A stretch of DNA of 64,000 nucleotides from Octopus vulgaris (lineage: Eukaryota). Both the position numbers and the translations under genes were made by a program. The stretch is from contig OX597825.1 of assembly GCA_951406725.2 (NCBI GenBank), forward strand, positions 73,718,001 to 73,782,000. The letters are read 5' to 3'. This document shows positions 9,527 through 55,050 of the stretch, one piece after another (position 1 is the first letter of the stretch; every line of letters begins with the position of its first letter). The notes beneath the pieces are model-generated. The model was not told the DNA's origin, ran no database searches, and saw nothing but the letters and a program-made list of their open reading frames with translations.

Positions 9527-10808
9527 TTCGTTTGTGCGTGTTTGCGTGTGTGTGTAAGAGTGTATAAATATATATATGTGCGTATAGTAAAACTACACTC
9601 GGTATTAGAGGAGAAATCTACATCAAATTGGCAACAAATTAACCGAAATTTCTACAAATCTTTCTGCAAACCCGTATATCGTCTGTTTTGCCGCAACGCT
9701 ATCTTATCTCTTAAGGTACACCAGCTATTGTTGTATATATTGTAATACACGTCTTAAATATTATTGCCATGCCGGTCACCGATGCTGGTATCATATCTCC
9801 TTCGTAATTATCAGAGAAAATACTGAAGACAACAGGATAAATATTGAAGAAAATATTTGCATATAAATTCTAACACACATATTGCATGAAAGCAATGGAA
9901 TGAAGATGGGATAAATAGATAGATAGTATAGATAGATCTATAGATCGATAAATAGAGAAATAATAGATCGATAGATAGAGAGGAAATAAGGAAGATTTTA
10001 TTCTGTATTTTCTTGCATACAAGTCGATGTGGTATGTAGCGTAAAAGTCCAAACATCGTCACTATCTGCTCAAATACTGCTGCATTTCTCAAGGAATTTT
10101 GGTTCTCCGAACTGTCTTGGAGTATAATCTGACCTACCTATCTTGAATGTAGATTTTAGTCTGAAAAGTTCGACTCGTAAGCTGCAAGATATTGTAAGTC
10201 GGGCAACGTGTAAACAGTTTACATTTTAGGCACTCTATGAATATCGCAGTAGCGATAAGTCATCGCATGGCACTGGTAATAAACAGAATATTCAGAAATA
10301 TGGTTAATTTCAGAAAGATAAATGATTTCTTATGCAAAGTTTAAGCAAAGCAACTTATTATTACCCATATGTAAAAATTACAGTGGATAAAGAAATTCAG
10401 ATAAAATCAATATTGTGGTTAGATTTTGTTGTGTCCAAATTATACGTCTACCTATAACTGTTATTTGGAAGACGCATTAAATGTGTATTTTGCAAATATT
10501 CTTATTGGTATTTTTCTGGTGATAATCTGTTTAGTAAATTTATTACTGAAGTTCTTATCGCCATTGTTTTAAATATATATATTTATACGAAAAAGAAAAA
10601 AATATACGTTTATGAAATATAGAGTGGATAAATTTTATTTTCTTCAGAAATTCAAGTCTGCTGTTGACGTTCTTCTTGTTTTTATATTATTTCTCTTGTT
10701 ATTCCATACTTCAAGAACTCTCATAAAGCTTTGTGCAGACCTAATATCGTCTGCTTTCGCTACACAGTTTTTTCTCTTAACATACACTCGGTATCGTAGT
10801 ATATATTA

Positions 10809-11042
10809 AGGTGGTGAGCTGGCAGAAACGTTAGCACGCCGGTCGAAATGCGTAGTCGTATTTCGTCTGCCGTTAAGTGTTCTGGGTTCAAATTCCGCCG
10901 AGGTCGACTTTGCCTTTCATCCTTTCGGGGTCGATAAATTAAATACCATTTACGCACTGGGGTCGATGTAATCGACTTAATCCCTTTGTCTGTCCTTGTT
11001 TGTCCCCTCTATGTTTAGCCCCTTGTGGGTAATAAAGAAATA
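10809..11042 (+). mobile_element. SINE family A, full length
   Basis: Complete from 'ggtggtgagctggcagaaacgttagc' through B-box 'gggttcaaattcc' to tail 'ccccttgtgggtaataaagaaata'. Confidence 0.92.
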
Positions 11043-11073
11043 TATATATTGTAGCTCATATAAATATTGTGAA

Positions 11074-11397
11074 GGCGCGTGGCTTAGTGGTTAAGGGAGC
11101 ATTCGGCTCATGATCGTAAGGTCGTGAGTTCAGTTCCCGGAGGGGCGTTGTGTCCTTCGGCAAGACACTTCATTCCACGATGCTCCAGTCCACTCAGCTG
11201 GCAAAAAATGAGTAGTACCTGTATTTCAAAGGGCCAGACTTGTCACACACTGTGTCACGCTGATTCTCCCCGAGAACTACGTTATGGGTACACGTGTTTG
11301 TGGAGTGCTCAGCCACTTACACGTTAATTTCACGAGCAAGCTGTTCCGTTGATCGCATCAGCTGGGACCCTCGTCGTCGCAACCGACGGAGGGCTCC
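11074..11397 (+). mobile_element. SINE family C, full length
   Basis: A-box 'tggcttagtgg', B-box-like 'gagttcagttcc'; 3' region 'gtacctgtatttcaa...cgtcgcaaccgacgga' also present at 16268-16450. Confidence 0.85.
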
Positions 11398-19814: not shown

Positions 19815-20213
19815 GTAGATGTAGGTATGTATGTAAGCATGTATGTATATATGTATGATTTATTTATTTATTTGAACGATTCTTGACGCGAATCTTTTTT
19901 AGAAATATATTGTACATAGGGTTGGGTCTATGTGATTATGGGATGTTTTTCAACACCTTGGTGTATAGAGCGAGAAATGTTCTCAACGGCAAATAGCTGT
20001 GAACACGGCCTTTGTACACATTAATTATGTTCCAAACATCGTTGAACTGACCTAAATGTTTGTATACGTGCAATACTACTTTCTAGCTTCTGTACAGTAC
20101 GAAGGAAATTTAGCGATAAATAAATCACTGAAAAGTGCAACGTGGTGAGGCACGGACCTTTGATAAAGGAGTTAATTAATCAGTTGATTAATTAATATTA
20201 CTAAACACGAAAG

Positions 20214-20645
20214 CAGCTATCTGGCAGAATCGTTAGCACGCCGGGCGAAATGCTTAGCGGTCTTTCGTCCGTCTTTGCATTCTGAGTTCAAATTCCGCCG
20301 AGGTAGACTTTGCCTTTCATCCTTTCGGGGTCGATTAAATAAGTACCAGTTACGCACTGGGGTCGATATAATCGACTTAATCCGTTTGTTTGTCCTTGTT
20401 TGTCCCCTCTGTGTGTAGCCCCTTGTGGGTAGTAAAGAAATAAGAATCGCTAGCACGCCGGGTAAAAATTCTTTGCAAAACTTCGTCCGTCTTTATGTTT
20501 TAAGTTCAAATTCTGTCGAGGTCGACTTTGTCTTTCATTCTCTCCGGAGCGATTAAATACGTATCAGTTAAACACTGGGGTCGATGTAATCTACTTACCC
20601 ATCCCCCAAAATTGCAGGCCTTGTGCCAAAATTTGAAACCAATAT
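20214..20645 (+). mobile_element. SINE family A dimer with two different tails
   Basis: Unit 1 ends 'gtaaagaaata' (~20442) and joins 'agaatcgctagcacgccgg'; unit 2 ends in 'ggccttgtgccaaaatttgaaaccaat'. Confidence 0.85.
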
Positions 20646-20700
20646 TACAAAAATCTAACTGCAAGCAAAATGGCAAAATGACTCCTTTAAGGTACAACAT

Positions 20701-25279: not shown

Positions 25280-25988
25280 TCTCTACCACATGATGTTGGA
25301 TTCCACCGCATAGCACCTTGGACAAGTGTCTTGTACTATAGCCTCGGGTCAACCAAAGCCTTGTGAGTAGATTTGGTACACGGAAATCGAAAGAATCCTT
25401 TTACACACACACACACACACACACATAAAATATACATTAAGTACAGTAAACACACGAGAGATAAGTACAGGACAAAATACAAAAACATATCAAACAATAC
25501 ACAATAAGTAGAGGACATCACCAATGAGGGAAAAATACGTAAACACACGAGAGATAAGTACAGGACAAAATACAAAAACATATCAAACAATGCACAATAA
25601 GTAGAGGACATCACAAATGAGGGAAAATACGTAAACACACGAGAGATAAGTACAGGACAAAATACCAAAACATAAAAAAATACACAATAAGTAGAGGACA
25701 TCACCAATGATGGAAAAATACGTAAAGACACGAGAGATTAGCAGAGGACAAAATACCAAAAGAAGGTAACTCCTCGTCAGTTGTCGACTGTTTTACTACT
25801 CCCTATTTCGTTCTTTTGTCTCCTCACTACCGATTCAAAACCGGTGTTGGTGTGTTTGCATCCACGTGACGGTTCGGCCAAATAGATCAATAGAATAAAG
25901 TATCCCGCTTAAAAAATAAGTACAGGACTTAAAGAATAAGAACTAATTCATTAGACTAAAAATAAGTCTGCGACCCCAGCATGGCCGC
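25280..25988 (+). mobile_element. SINE family B split at its central microsatellite by an insertion
   Basis: 5' arm ~25280-25400 ('gcaccttggacaagtgtctt...cggaaatcgaaagaa'); 3' arm ~25815-25988 ending 'ccccagcatggccgc'. Confidence 0.75.
25446..25760. repeat. Tandem repeat, ~92-bp unit, about 3.4 copies
   Basis: Units start 'gtaaacacacgagagataagtacaggac' at 25446, 25539, 25631 and 25722; each contains 'ataagta(c/g)aggaca' twice. Confidence 0.92.
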
Positions 25989-27789: not shown

Positions 27790-28226
27790 TTCTTTTCCAT
27801 TCTACTCTAAGCACAAGGCCCGGAATTTTGGGGCAGGGGACCAGTCGATTGGATGGACCCCAGTACGCATCTGATACTTAATTTATCGACCCCGAAAGGA
27901 TGAAAGGCAAAGTCAACTTCGGCGGAATTTGAACTCAGAACGTAAAGACAGACGAAATACCGCTAAACATTTCGCCCGGCTCGCTAACGTTTCTTATTTC
28001 CTTATTGCCCACAGGGGGCTAAACATAGAGGAGACAAACAAGAACAGACAAAGGGATTAAGTCGATTACATCGACCCCAGTGCGTAACTGGTACTTAATT
28101 TATCGACCCCCGAAAGGATGAAAGGCAATGTCGACCTCGGCAGAATTTGAACTCAGAACGTAACGACAGACGAAATTCCGCTAAACATTTCGCCCGGCGT
28201 GCTAACGTTTCTGCCAGCTCGCCGCT
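27790..28226 (-). mobile_element. SINE family A dimer
   Basis: Two family-A cores (27875-27960, 28090-28180) joined on the minus strand as 'ggaaata|agaaacgttagc' at ~27995. Confidence 0.88.
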
Positions 28227-29065
28227 TTCTCAACGTGGAATAGTTACGAAGAAGAATGTAGGCAAATTTCTTCTATACGCTTGATGTGCAGGAAAACGAA
28301 GCAAGTCGCTGAATGGACCTTTACAATGAAATACGACGGCCATGCCTTCACTGAAGAGTGATCACAAGTCATGAAACGGTCCTGCAAGAGATTTCCTCGT
28401 TTATTTGCTCTTAGTAACAGTATACGACACATGTGCTTACATTATTAGTTTACCCACAGTGAGGCTTTATAATGTTTAAATATACTGAAGTTCTATATGT
28501 GTGAGTATGTGCATTCGTGTATGTGTGTGTTGTATATATTGCTCGGGTGATCAAAGCTTAGAGATACAAAATTAAGCACTCAATACCTCAATGTGTAGAT
28601 GTGTTATGATATTTATTACGTTACTTGTTGACAAACTCAATTCTACTTCAGTTGTCTGCGAAGTTCCATATAAAACTAAACTTGTAAATAGGTAATCTAA
28701 TATATATATACGTACCTATGCATGTATGTATGTATGTATGTATGTATGTATGTATGTATGTATGTATGTATGTATGTATGTATGTATGTATGTGTGTATG
28801 TATGTATGTATGTATGTATGTATGTATGTATGTATGTATGTGGGCATGTATATATGTATGTGTTGTGTGTGTGTGTGCGCGTGTGCCTGCGTTCGTGTGT
28901 GTTTAACTATATATACAGACATGCACACTTATATAATATGTATATACTCTTTTACTCGTTTCAGCCATGCGGCTGTGGTCATGCTGGAGCACCACCATAT
29001 ATATATGTATATAATTTTTGCAATGATAAAGATAGGAAGAGGGAGAAGTGTGAACGTGACCAAGG

Positions 29066-29112
<47 letters not shown>

Positions 29113-29616
29113 GTTTGGTCGGTGGCGTGTTTTGTAACACTATATGTTAGAGAACTATGTCAAGGGTTTCGTACTGCGGAAGCTAAGTATGTCAGGTAAA
29201 AAAAAAAAAAAATTCATAACGAATGGAGTCCTCGGTTATGCTGATAAACATCTCAATGAGAAACGTTGAGAACAGATATAAGAGGTATTAAGCACAAGCC
29301 AGAGAAAAAAAAAAATAAAACTAATATTTCGTCTTAGATTTCCGTTCCAAAGCACGTGAGGTGAGAATGCTCGAGTATTTTACTTACCATTTTTATTTTT
29401 GCGTGTTTTCAGAGACTATTTGAATGCCAGTGCTGCTACAGAATCACACATTGCTTGTTTTTCTTTCTGTGTTCCTTGCTTATGATGTAACCAGCTTGCA
29501 CAGTCATTTTGGGAACTCCTCTTCAACGCTTTGCTGTACATTATCACTTATATTAATTACAATTCTAATTTACCATCGTTGTTATTTTGTTTCTTTGGTA
29601 TTTATTTAAAGCCCAA

Positions 29617-30035
29617 GGCGGCGATGAGCTGGCAGAAACATTAGCACGCCGGGCGAAATGCGTAGCCGTATTTTGTCTGCCGCTACGTTCTGAGTTCAAA
29701 TTCCGCCGCGGTCGACTTTGCCTTTCATCCTTTCGGGGGTCGATAAATTAAGCACCAGTTACGCACTGGGGTCGATGTAATCGACTTAATACCTATGTCT
29801 GTCTTTGTTTGTCCCTTCTATGTTTAGCCCCTTGTGGATAATAAAGAAATAGGTATTTCGTCTGCCGCTACGTTCTGAGTTCAAATTCCGCCGCGGTCGA
29901 CTTTGCCTTTCATCCTTTCGGTGTCGATAAATTAAGTACCAGTTACGCACTGGGGTCGATGTAATCGACTTAATACCTATGTCTGTCTTTGTTTGTCCCT
30001 TCTATGTTTAGCCCCTTGTGGATAATAAAGAAATA
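29617..30035 (+). mobile_element. SINE family A dimer with 21-bp TSD
   Basis: TSD 'ggtatttatttaaagcccaag' at 29597-29617 and 30036-30056; second unit starts 'ggtatttcgtctgcc' at ~29852. Confidence 0.95.
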
Positions 30036-30559
30036 GGTATTTATTTAAAGCCCAAGTCGTCGACAGTTAAAATATGACGATGCTTGCCAAACTGATCTCA
30101 TTCATTGCCGTTGGTTTATTTATCTATTCATTTGTATATTCCTTGTTTTCTTTTCATCTATCTTTCTTTCTTGGAGTGGTGGTGCTGAACACTAGAAAGA
30201 ATGCAAGCGAGTTACATTATCGACAAGGTATCCAATTTCGGTAAAGTGAAATATCTGAATGGCGTGCTGAGATTTCAAGCTAATATATATGGCGTTCGTT
30301 TAGGATGTGAGACCAGCAGGCTCTGTAAAGCGACCGACGAATATGATTTGCCTTATTGAATTATAACCTTTTATGTCACCCTCTGAAATCCAAACCTATA
30401 TCCAGCGATGACAGGTCTTTTCTGTACTTCCGGGGTCGATAAAAAACATCAATCAAATATTGAAACCGGTTTAACTTATTTGTACGTTATAAGAATATAC
30501 TCCAAAGTGTCCAGCCTCATGCATAGGTTGTCCTCCAAAGCCTATATATACATATACAT

Positions 30560-30918: not shown

Positions 30919-31670
30919 TAATTTTACCAAAAAAGGTTATTTTAACGTATCGATCTACTTGGTACAATTATTAATTATTAATTATAAATAAAATCAGTAA
31001 AATATTTACCATTTCAGCACCGGGGTAGATATAATCACTTTTACCCCAACCCTCAAAACCATGCTGGCCTTGTGCCAAAATTCGAAAATAAAATTATTTA
31101 GAGCTAGCAGTAATTCTTTCGACTCTTGAAACCCCACCGAGGTCAGCTTTGCTTTTCATCCTTTCGAGGTCAATGAAATAATGTACCAGTGGAGCTCAGA
31201 GATCGATTCAATCAGCCCACCTAAATCTGCTGGCCTTGTGCTAAAACTGGAAATCAAATAATTTAGAGCCAGCTAGCTGCCATTGGGTACACAATGTATA
31301 ATAGATTTCTTGTCTTAACAAACCAGTAGTTGGAAACGATTGCGCGGCAGATGGTAATTTGTCTGTATTGACGTGACACATACAATTTTCTGAGAAGCTT
31401 CGTTTCTGTGTTGAGTGAAATTGTTCCAGTGCAAATAGTAACAAGGTAAATAGACGTGTACCTGATGGCAGTGGAAAAGCTAGGTGATATCAAAGACGGA
31501 GAACAACGGTGCTGTAATGATGAGGTGTGATGAAGTAAGTTCCAGTGCAGATAACGTTAAATATATCATCAACATGGCTTCTGATATCTCTTGATTCATT
31601 TTACGGACGTAATGCGTAATAATAGGCTTGCTGTAGACGTATAAGCATTGATAATCACGATAGCTTCACG

Positions 31671-45680: not shown

Positions 45681-46325
45681 TATATAGTGCGCTTATCTGA
45701 AGTAATCTCGTTATAGACTCCTTGGGTAACAATGGGGATAATATTGTGTAAATTAGTAGACCCAAATTCAGCAGAAAAGTTAGTATGTACTTTGAAATAT
45801 TTAATTACGTTTTTATAGCTTGAGACTTTGAAAAGTTTAGAAAGGTATTATGAAATGAGTTGAACGTCCTTTAGAATCCGTAATGCTGAAATGATTTGAA
45901 AGCAGTAATGTATTTTTGGATATGAAATGATATTTCCGAATAAGTAATAACATTTTCTGAAATAATCTGATTGTGATAATCTGGGTTTCAACGTATATTG
46001 TATTTTGAAACGACTTCACTGTAATAATACACTTCGGATATAATTTACTGCGATATAAAATGTAAAACGCATTTTCTTCTCCTTTTTCTATGTGTGTGCG
46101 TGTATGTTTTTCTCTTGTTGACACCCACATACATAGGTAAACACAGTGACATGTGTGTTTACATCCATGCAGACTATACGTAGACACACCGGCATGCGCA
46201 CACATGCGGGCACACGTAGGTATACTGCTGCTCTTACAATCCTAAAGCTAAGAGCAAAAGACAACTTACAGCGTTCGCAATGATCTTTTTTGAGATGAAT
46301 AAATAAAGCATTGCCGTTGTAGCTT

Positions 46326-46545
46326 ACAAGGGGCTAAACACAGAGGGGACAAACAAGGACAGACAAACGGGTTAAGTCGATTACATCGATCCCAGTGCGT
46401 AACTGGTACTTAATTTATCGACCCCGAAAGGATGAAAGGCAAAGTCGACCTCGGCGGAATTTGAACTCAGAACGTAGCGGCAGACGAAATACGGCTACGT
46501 ATTTCGCCCGACGTGCTAACGTTTCTGCCAGCTCACCGCCTTTCA
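46326..46545 (-). mobile_element. SINE family A with 35-bp flanking duplication
   Basis: 'tgagatgaataaata(a/t)agcattgccgttgtagctt' at 46291-46325 and 46546-46580. Confidence 0.92.
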
Positions 46546-46701
46546 TGAGATGAATAAATATAGCATTGCCGTTGTAGCTTCTAGTGACTGAGGATAGAGC
46601 AGCACCATACCAGATAATGAATGTGGCCACGTATACACAGCATTGTTACTTCAGAACATATATTCAGGCTTTAACCAAACAACAAATTTGAACAGACCGT
46701 A

Positions 46702-52132: not shown

Positions 52133-53542
52133 GTCTATGTATATATGCATATGAATAAATACATGCATACATATACGCACATTATATATATACCTGTGTG
52201 TGTAGGCATGTGTATGGTTGTGTATTCCTGCTGAGAGTTGTGACACCGAATCTCACAACATATTTTATGGTCGCAAAACTGTTGAGGATACCATCACTTA
52301 GCCCTGTATTTGGCGTCTGCGTAACCGGCAATCTTCAATTTTAATCCCTGATAAAGAAACGCTCTACATTATTTACTCAGGTGGTGCTTATTTACAACTA
52401 GATAGACTGAGCTGTTGATTCGTCATAAAGTACTGCAAACAGGATAAGAACCACCACCTCTTCGATTGGCAGTTCTAATATTTAGCTAGAAGCTAATATA
52501 GAGCCGTAGCAAATTCATTGAACGAGATTTAGCTTAGAATCCTGAGTTTCGACTATTTACGTCTTGTAATTACATGTGTGGCTTCTGTAGAGATAAGAAA
52601 ATACTTTCAAACGAATTTGATTTACGGTGAAATCAGTAAATCCGTTTAGAAAACGCTGTAAATAGTTTTGCGGTGATTCCTTATTGAAACTAGCTTAACG
52701 ATATTCGAGATGCTGTTAACCATTTCCTTTTAATCCACGCTGCCTCTAAACACACGTAAAATATGAAAAACGTACCCGGATCAAGTAAATAGTTTTGCAT
52801 TCATATCTACAGCGCGCCATTTTCTGGAAATTCTAATTGTGTGTGCGTGTGTTTGAGTGTGTTGTCAATATAACAGATAGAACAAAGTTTTAATAATTCT
52901 TATTTAATTCTGGACTATTTCATACTTCAATCAAGTAGAAATAAATTTTTAGCAGTACTAGGCTTCCATTTCGTTAACAACATAACAAAATAATTTGGTT
53001 AAAAAAAGCTGTAAGGCTAATACATAAATACGAGAGATACTACCGATCACTTTAACGCTTAGAATCTATTCAGTTGTGTCTCTTTTCCTACGTTTATTGC
53101 TTATAGCAAGGACATTATTTTCATTTAACGAGTAGCAAAATTTATACATCCTCACCTCTCGCCGATTCAGTTATCACTGATGCGGGATAACACGGTACGC
53201 TTAATTGAGCAAAATGTGACGCTTACCTCGAATTGATATGTAATGACTCACTCAAAGATTCCGCGTGGGCCGCAAAAGCGCATCTCAGTAACCATCCACA
53301 ATGCCCTCCTACCCGGAATCCACTGATTATAAATTATCTTTACGTCACATTGGGTTTACGTACACGTAGCCATAATGTTCGATTATTCATTTATTATTGA
53401 TTCATTTAACACGGTGAATTTTTTAGAACCAAACACCAGTGATAAACGAGGACATATATAACCACGAAGCGAAGTGTTAGCATGTTCTAGATATTCATTA
53501 ATTGCATTATTATTATCTTAGTGGTTTCATTCAATGGGCTAC

Positions 53543-54687
53543 TACCTATTTCTTTATTACCCACAAGGGGCCAAACACGGAGGGAACAAACAAGGACAGA
53601 CATAGGTATTAAGTCGACCACATCGACCCCAGTGCGCAACTGGTACTTAATTTATCGACCCTGAAAGGATGAAAGGCAAAGTCGACCTCGGCGGAATTTG
53701 AACTCACAACGTAACGCAGACGAAATACCTATTTCTTTATTACCCACAAGGGGCCAAACACGGAGGGAACAAACAAGGACAGACATAGGTATTAAGTCGA
53801 TTACATCGACCCCAGTGCGTGACTGGTACTTAATTTATCGACCCCGAAAGGATGAAAGGCAAAGTCGACCTCGGCGGAATTTGAACTCACAACGTAACGC
53901 AGACGAAATACCTATTTCTTTATTACCCACAAGGGGCCAAACACGGAGGGAACAAACAAGGACAGACATAGGTATTAAGTCGATTACATCGACCCCAGTG
54001 CGTGACTGGTACTTAATTTATCGACCCCGAAAGGATGAAAGGCAAAGTCGACCTCGGCGGAATTTGAACTCACAACGTAACGCAGACGAAATACCTATTT
54101 CTTTATTACCCACAAGGGGCTAAACATAGAGGGGACAAACAAGGACAGACATAGGTATTAAGTCGATTACATCGACCCCAGTGCGTGACTGGTACTTAAT
54201 TTATCGACCCCGAAAGGATGAAAGGCAAAGTCGACCTCGGCGGAATTTGAACTCACAACGTAACGCAGACGAAATACCTATTTCTTTATTACCCACAAGG
54301 GGCCAAACACGGAGGGAACAAACAAGGACAGACATAGGTATTAAGTCGATTACATCGACCCCAGTGCGTGACTGGTACTTAATTTATCGACCCCGAAAGG
54401 ATGAAAGGCAAAGTCGACCTCGGCGGAATTTGAACTCACAACGTAACGCAGACGAAATACCTATTTCTTTATTACCCACAAGGGGCTAAACATAGAGGGG
54501 ACAAACAAGGACAGACATAGGTATTAAGTCGATTACATCGACCCCAGTGCGTGACTGGTACTTAATTTATCGACCCCGAAAGGATGAAAGGCAAAGTCGA
54601 CCTCGGCGGAATTTGAACTCACAACGTAACGCAGACGAAATAGCGCTAAGCACTTCGCCCGGCGTGCCAACGTTTCTGCCAGCTCGC
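53543..54687 (-). mobile_element. SINE family A hexamer (183-bp period) with 9-bp TSD
   Basis: Units start at 53543, 53726, 53909, 54092, 54275 and 54458; only the last carries the full head; 'gctactacc' at 53539-53547 and 54686-54694. Confidence 0.95.
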
Positions 54688-54884
54688 TACTACCGTTTGG
54701 GGACATGACCTTCTTGGGTTCTAATTTTGGTTTTTGTCCATCAAATCGATCATCCGGGCATATTTCGGTCTTTTGCTTGTTCTGTTGAAAAGTTATATTA
54801 CACGTTACATAAGAAACACCACATATAGATTTTCTGCCATTTTTGTTCTCAGATAATATCTGTTATGGATGTACTAAATTGAAA

Positions 54885-55050
54885 AATCACTCAGTCCACT
54901 GTGCGAGGAGGTTGGTGTTAGGAAGAGCATCCAGCAATAAAAACAATGCCAAAACAGACAGAGTAGCCTGGAGTAGTTTTCTAACTGGCCGACCCCTGTC
55001 AAACCGCCCAACCCATGCGAACATGGAAGACGGCCATTAAACGATGATTA
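54885..55050 (+). mobile_element. RTE-tailed SINE fragment
   Basis: 'ggttggtgttaggaagagcatccagc...ctgtcaaaccg..caacccatgc..catggaagacgg.cattaaacgatgat'. Confidence 0.7.

Follow-up and report, generated by a model that had tools for sequence, protein, structure and literature searches.

The closest described counterpart of the locus analysed here comes from another mollusc, the bivalve Scapharca broughtonii, where arrays of the form TSD1-(SINE)n-TSD1 hold 4-15 units within one outer target site duplication (TSD), the first unit carries the full tRNA-related head and the later units are cut at the same head position, as in our array (PMC11481361). The squamate satellites sSat1-3 also resemble it: their tandem units fall short of the full SINE, the terminal unit is the longer one, and there are four monomers in the middle and alternating unit types. 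Their unit number varies between orthologous loci, for which unequal recombination has been proposed, and satellites of this type tend to be subtelomeric and to form long, homogenised arrays (PMC10702118). The first duplication in such SINE-derived arrays has likewise been put down to unequal recombination (PMC10702118, PMC11481361). At the RNA level, the R2 and L1 reverse transcriptases are described as jumping between templates, so that, as the element integrates, the 3' end of one RNA copy is joined to a second copy at a 5' or internal point (PMC3414825). Rolling-circle mobilisation has been proposed for non-LTR retrozymes, which are marked by abundant circular RNA and, like the family studied here, form short non-autonomous monomers, dimers and multimers (10.64898/2026.07.22.740005). 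Octopus carries tRNA-derived SINEs, OR1 and OR2, that have been termed CORE-SINEs (PMC4824008, PMC4758252), and the available text of an octopus SINE annotation makes no mention of arrays of this kind (PMC13282606).

In the window, i.e., the whole stretch of 64,000 nucleotides that was analysed, we found a SINE hexamer on the minus strand at 53538-54694. Its six units have an exact period of 183 bp, with tails starting at 53547, 53730, 53913, 54096, 54279 and 54462 (TRF: period 183, 6.0 copies, 98% matches, score 2109), and a single target duplication lies around all of them, namely the 9-bp direct repeat GCTACTACC, whose only two copies in the window start at 53538 and 54686. A sequence-only reading of this DNA had described six 183-bp units within one 9-bp TSD, and this holds, although the left copy starts at 53538 and not at 53539 as it had stated; the last two letters of that copy possibly belong to the element itself, giving a TSD length of 7-9 bp. 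Its statement that only the 5'-most unit bears a head, the others restarting after the tail, also stands: the 41-nt head is present once, five headless units restart at GGTATTTCGTCTG immediately behind the tail AAAGAAATA, and the tail end AATAAAGAAATA is present on all six. Viewed by the sSat criteria, the 183-bp unit is shorter than the SINE, units 2-5 are the middle monomers and unit 6 is the headed one. The features of the locus are as follows.

53538..53546, minus strand: 3' TSD copy, GGTAGTAGC in element orientation; it starts with GGTA, the first four letters behind the tail at internal junctions
53547..53729, minus strand: unit 1, 3'-most, type A', with 5 differences from A and 9 from B
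53730..53912, minus strand: unit 2, type A, identical to units 3 and 5
53913..54095, minus strand: unit 3, type A, identical to units 2 and 5
54096..54278, minus strand: unit 4, type B, with 4 differences from A
54279..54461, minus strand: unit 5, type A, identical to units 2 and 3
54462..54644, minus strand: unit 6, type B, 5'-most, with GC in place of GG at the junction-equivalent position
54513..54530, minus strand: body motif of the subfamily, one in each unit, with the core AATACCTAT; its complement is the junction at 54451-54468
54608..54620, minus strand: B-box-like motif GAGTTCAAATTCC, spotted by eye and found in every headless unit too
54632..54661, minus strand: 13-bp apical stem carrying a TAGC loop; the first base of the 3' arm is where the repeat unit begins
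54645..54685, minus strand: the single 41-nt head, with the hairpin 5' arm, the TAGC loop (54645-54648) and an A-box-like motif (about 54667-54681)
54686..54694, minus strand: 5' TSD copy, seen in the sequence

The units belong to three types, A, B and A', in the order B,A,B,A,A,A' from 5' to 3'. Units 4 and 6 (B) are identical except for one letter at the junction position, and the 4 columns that separate A from B are linked in every unit; A' differs from A at 5 further columns (72, 73, 91, 92 and 116). The division into two variants that had been proposed, units 1, 2, 3 and 5 versus 4 and 6, is right for the four columns it quoted and missed A', and the alternation of types that it described is not strict. 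The present analysis adds this third type, a further multimer in the window and the finding that the junction sits at the apex of a hairpin. Five of the eight changes on the A' side (53547-53729) are A-to-G when read on the RNA strand, with T or A as the preceding base, an excess with a P of 0.004 against the window background and of 0.016 with one common variant removed. A' is possibly a copy of an edited RNA, chance or conversion being likewise possible; RNA editing as the sole maker of the unit types was ruled out, as A and B also differ by C/T changes. Since the sense strand of the hexamer lacks any run of four T, the first lying 262 nt downstream, the headed array could be transcribed whole. 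A 152-aa ORF across units 1-4 was rejected as a gene, as it merely mirrors the period (183 = 61 x 3).

SINEBase defines a SINE as a short (under 1 kb), interspersed repeat (PMC3531059), and the element is SINE-like in size and dispersal: its monomer has about 230 nt, and of the 25 blast pieces that the window contains, 18 are not part of the hexamer. Several of the window copies bear TSDs of their own. A- and B-box-like motifs were spotted by eye in head and body. ARAGORN returned 0 tRNA genes, and Rfam gave no match at 53300-55000 (E up to 5) and three chance-level matches, none a tRNA, at 46300-46570. We presume from the SINE and its microsatellite-rich setting that this is an octopus genome with its abundant SINE, perhaps OR1 or OR2. 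In four of four public sequencing runs, 80,929 to 165,010 contigs per run fell on a one-unit stretch, a figure that is not a copy number but is far above single-copy depth, and three raw-read runs of 12,895,792 reads each contained 16, 239 and 0 family reads. Runs X15-X20, with small shares, do not enter these results. SINEs are transcribed by Pol III and share their tail with a partner LINE; among the blast pieces in the window there was no LINE with this tail. The junction and tail patterns had no match in viral contigs; their 7 metagenome matches were rejected as chance matches to other DNA (0/7 share a blast piece with the SINE), and a phage search with the SINE monomer gave 6 hits, all at chance level. 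The copy at 46326-46542 (minus strand) is missing the last part of its tail and still lies between long direct repeats (18 bp exact, longer with mismatches), and 25446-25761 is an unrelated 93-bp minisatellite of 3.4 copies with 93% matches.

A second, independent multimer of the same subfamily shows the same junction.

29597..29617, plus strand: 5' TSD copy of the dimer, 18-21 bp, starting GGTATTT; the 3' copy is at 30036-30056
29618..30035, plus strand: dimer, with a headed unit (29618-29851) and a headless unit (29852-30035) joined as in the hexamer

The two dimer units have 7 differences from the window majority in common and therefore come from one source. The headed unit has one T4, possibly a later change, and hexamer and dimer carry different head types. 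The junction is not peculiar to the hexamer, as the join of the tail to GGTATTTCG recurs both in this dimer and in contigs from public runs. In run X2, the RNA nature of which is a guess, contigs on the monomer 10740-11120 join the tail back to the same inner position as in the hexamer, with G, GTAG, TTAG or GGAAATAG in between at the best-supported joints; the joint from the tail to the apex position with G in between has a depth of 73.6. Another 126 X2 contigs are loose-ended behind the tail, and their consensus continues GTATTTCGTCTG with an agreement of 0.43. Degenerate forms of the junction occur in runs X1, X5 and X7, with none for X4 among the matches listed. In run X22, which has 239 family reads in 12.9 million, the tail is followed by GCTATTTCGTCTG and then a deletion, the junction being GC and not GG (51 reads, 31 starts).

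On the monomer 10740-11120, the X22 reads run through the tail and GCTATTTCGTCTG and jump to 10977, which gives a unit of about 79 bp, and other X22 reads have 16 letters and then jump to 10989; these jumps are shorter tandem derivatives of the same SINE family. The window has two cases of a second junction type, in which the tail joins about head position 14, and the X2 matches listed include one more. The two window cases are heterodimers, at 27790-28228 (minus strand) and 20208-20650 (plus strand), where a copy of a second subfamily, with a different 3' end, begins immediately behind a AAAGAAATA-tailed copy. That second copy starts at about head position 14 (AGAAACG and AGAATCG), and in each heterodimer a head variant is common to both parts, as though the head were a duplicated target. 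At 31062-31273 (plus strand), an old diverged copy of this second subfamily contains its 47-nt 3' end twice, 166 bp apart and 85% alike, and is likely an old tail-to-inner tandem of the same kind.

The junction coincides with a structural landmark, as the repeat unit begins at the first base behind the apical loop of the head hairpin. In all six copies folded, the head is predicted to form an elongated rod that ends in an apical stem capped by a TAGC loop (z -0.35 to -4.3), while the full headed unit folds no better than its shuffles (z -0.31). Across ten window copies, 96.2% of 130 cells in the 13-bp apical stem are paired, and one pair is altered on both sides, which 3 of 500 shuffles also reached; this is weak evidence, for the copies are related and the structure was derived from them. 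The altered pair closes the loop (head alignment columns 37/42) and is T-G in five copies and G-C in five, so that the two changes together preserve the hairpin and distinguish two types of head.

The multimers also share a mark in the body of the SINE. The motif AATACCTATGTCTG occurs eight times in the window, each time in a multimer (six hexamer and two dimer units), and other window copies have AATCCCTTT or similar at this position. Its core is the exact complement of ATA|GGTATT (9 nt) inside 18-nt arms that are 83% complementary, and the predicted probability of pairing between motif and junction is 0.85-0.97. Both multimer bodies contain this 9-nt complement across the junction, which none of six other copies has. 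Seven of its nine letters already match in other copies, and nine random substitutions yield such a complement at a frequency of 3.6e-4 in a post hoc test. One of the two diagnostic substitutions pairs with the letters behind the tail and the other with the tail itself, and in run X2 the two changes stand at roughly 15-16% of the summed depth. Private changes in the dimer lengthen this same predicted 3' stem at 29768-29858 and 29952-30042 (z -3.1 and -3.5), which suggests, on folding models, templated correction or selection on the fold.

A further correlation concerns the target sites. Among eight window loci with a complete tail, the target starts with GGTA at both multimers and at none of the six others, one of which starts GGT (Fisher p 0.036, post hoc; GGTA frequency 0.0025). 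The target shares 4 letters with the junction in the hexamer and 7 in the dimer, and the junction letters themselves (GG in the hexamer, G in the dimer) agree with the start of the target, while the multimers' own head units read GC and C. Overlap between the 3' end of an element and its target is described for the L1, CR1, L2 and RTE clades, where pairing between RNA and DNA during priming is given as the cause (PMC6007223). Read most simply, these data point to a source RNA with GGUAUU behind its tail. The links of the junction to GGTA and to the subfamily rest on two multimer loci with readable flanks.

The flanks give an indication of age. A 396-nt contig from run X1 on 53180-53729 covers flank and TSD and reaches 11 letters into the tail, differing by 10 substitutions and 4 gaps; these 11 letters are below the bridging threshold of 31 letters, and the contig suggests that the insertion is shared with a haplotype about 2.6% apart in which the site is filled. 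Contigs from X4, X5 and X7 match up to 53543 with 16-18 substitutions and 7 gaps and then continue for 248, 248 and 159 unaligned letters, and their leaving at 53543 suggests an empty site. If the insertion is as old as the X1 split, 5.6-12.8 private changes are expected in units 2-6 (915 bp), versus 0 observed. Pairwise flank divergence gives 12.1 expected changes (P 5.5e-6, lower bound 0.003), and the nearest 247 nt of flank alone give 5.6 (P 0.004, lower bound 0.32); five window-only flank changes, all 250-330 nt from the site, soften this age test. B and A' differ at 9 columns, where 4.8-8.5 are expected for a pair as old as the insertion; at the nearest-flank rate 2.2 are expected, and 9 would then be excessive (P 0.001). 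To pass from a B-A' dimer to the order of the hexamer takes a minimum of 4 steps with conversion and 5 without. A one-base deletion and a C-to-G change are common to all six units; from the window majority the 3'-most unit differs 12 times, compared with 9 and 5.

Because the junction recurs, the targets start with the letters found behind the tail and the subfamily motif pairs across the junction, we favor an origin of the junction at the RNA or reverse-transcription level. The earlier proposal of such an origin is thus favored for the junction; that of unequal exchange in a two-variant dimer is retained for the step from two to six units, where the absence of private changes in units 2-6 favors expansion at the DNA level. 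Our results lead us to speculate, in roughly even balance between belief and doubt, that a dimer was inserted from an RNA with GGUAUU behind its tail, which primed on GGTA, and was later duplicated to six units at the DNA level. In a first step, a subfamily transcript would pass AAAGAAAUA and continue as GGUAUU(U), coming from a master locus that is already multimeric or reading on into such a flank. This extension might fold back on the body motif AAUACCUAU, and it might also pair with nicked GGTA targets and prime reverse transcription there. As it repeats the first 6-7 letters of the hairpin 3' arm, a reverse transcriptase that has reached the apex could transfer to the 3' end, recopy the 183-nt part and then finish through the head. 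In a second step, seed units B and A' would diverge, and at least 4 rounds of duplication or conversion, at this site or at the master, would produce B,A,B,A,A,A'. What is observed is the anatomy, a second multimer, a junction that recurs and the complementarity; the strand transfer itself is our proposal. The GC junction of X22 fits a join by position better than a join through a GG extension and counts against this reading, as do the differing head types and the small number of loci.

A history at the DNA level throughout appears unlikely. A monomer inserted at a GGTA target would leave a repeat of 2-6 bp shared by the hairpin 3' arm and the 3' TSD, so that slippage or break repair at the hairpin could duplicate the intervening 183 bp and unequal exchange could add the remaining units. 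The junction letters match the start of the TSD at both loci, the dimer offers microhomology of 6 bp (GTATTT), expansion to six units is probably a DNA-level step in any case, and unequal recombination is what has been proposed for similar arrays (PMC10702118, PMC11481361). The head unit of the hexamer, however, has just TA in common with the start of the TSD, and this route leaves unexplained both the junction-complementary motif in the two multimers and the high frequency of the junction in the family; moreover, the distance between B and A' suggests a pair about as old as the insertion.

A more doubtful variant at the RNA level makes the body motif a splint. The motif GACUUAAUACCUAUGUCU would pair with the 3' tail and the hairpin 3' arm together and thereby align the 3' end of the RNA with the apex. 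A cut in the UAGC loop might then yield a 183-nt circle by ligation, or the reverse transcriptase might be passed from apex to tail, and we regard these sequels as no less doubtful. If true, headed multimers would be a normal product that become master genes, and a retrovirus-like strand transfer in a SINE would offer a direct route from retrotransposition to a satellite seed.

Nested self-insertion, which we consider improbable, would start with a nick at the apex of a resident copy, into which a new copy inserts, its 5' end joining the old head seamlessly by homology; equally improbably, repeated rounds would add units at the head end, with the 3'-most unit the oldest. The junction lies exactly 3' of the apical loop, the 3'-most unit is indeed the most diverged, the heterodimers at 27790-28228 and 20208-20650 resemble a copy within the head of another subfamily, and the GC junction of X22 fits a join by position. 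Such insertions give no reason for the GGTA start of the outer TSDs, and independent events should bring unlike copies, whereas the hexamer units share a deletion and the C-to-G change and the dimer units 7 variants, so that this route is workable only with the locus's own transcript as template.

It seems quite improbable that all six units arose in a single event, from a circular 183-nt RNA or by repeated RNA-RNA jumps ending on a full-length RNA. One TSD, one head and exact junctions are what such an event would leave, the body motif could hold the 3' end beside the apex arm through its 18-nt arms, template jumps by non-LTR enzymes are documented (PMC3414825), and, should the age from the flanks be wrong, the absence of any private change in units 2-6 would agree with a very recent event. 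One circle, however, cannot yield three interleaved unit types, and the insertion appears to be common to a diverged haplotype. The unit read across the junction contains no hammerhead core (CTGANGA) on either strand, its circular folds are no stabler than shuffled ones (z 0.11-0.35) with no Rfam match, and no HDV-type fold was found by eye at the unit start; copying of a circular RNA in one round, which the sequence-only reading had offered, is therefore not supported. An assembly artefact, in which the assembly inflated a real dimer or trimer or polishing homogenised its units, is highly improbable and would at most put the copy number in doubt: units 2, 3 and 5 share one sequence and units 4 and 6, apart from the junction letter, another, and no contig spans the array, but the four A/B differences are linked in every unit, the types are interleaved, the array is just 1.1 kb and the junction is present in independent data.

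The architecture of the array is already known from bivalves and reptiles, and the hexamer locus has no shown function; a fixed junction together with a subfamily that pairs across it was not found in the literature searched. That search returned no such cephalopod arrays, no apex-fixed junction and no junction-pairing motif, within a scope that left most subscription papers, including the original octopus SINE paper, outside. In the Scapharca broughtonii arrays the first and inner units lack the end of the tail, which the last unit has, whereas the hexamer has a full tail on every unit; in addition, our junction is found again at another locus and coincides with the apex of a hairpin, neither of which is reported for those arrays in the available text (PMC11481361). 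Short squamate sSat loci vary in the region that is repeated, whereas the short arrays here have one junction, and the sSat account, as far as available, does not discuss TSDs or pairing across the junction (PMC10702118). Non-LTR retrozymes are defined by a hammerhead ribozyme and full-length units, in contrast to the hexamer, where none was found and a tRNA-type head occurs once (10.64898/2026.07.22.740005).

Here the first junction is fixed, sits at a structural landmark and comes with a subfamily mark and a target preference. If our reading is true, a very abundant SINE seeds satellites through its own copying. The hexamer may offer a small-scale view of SINEs seeding satellite DNA, and the fixed junction with its two marks makes the RNA- versus DNA-level origin of SINE-derived satellites testable by counting.
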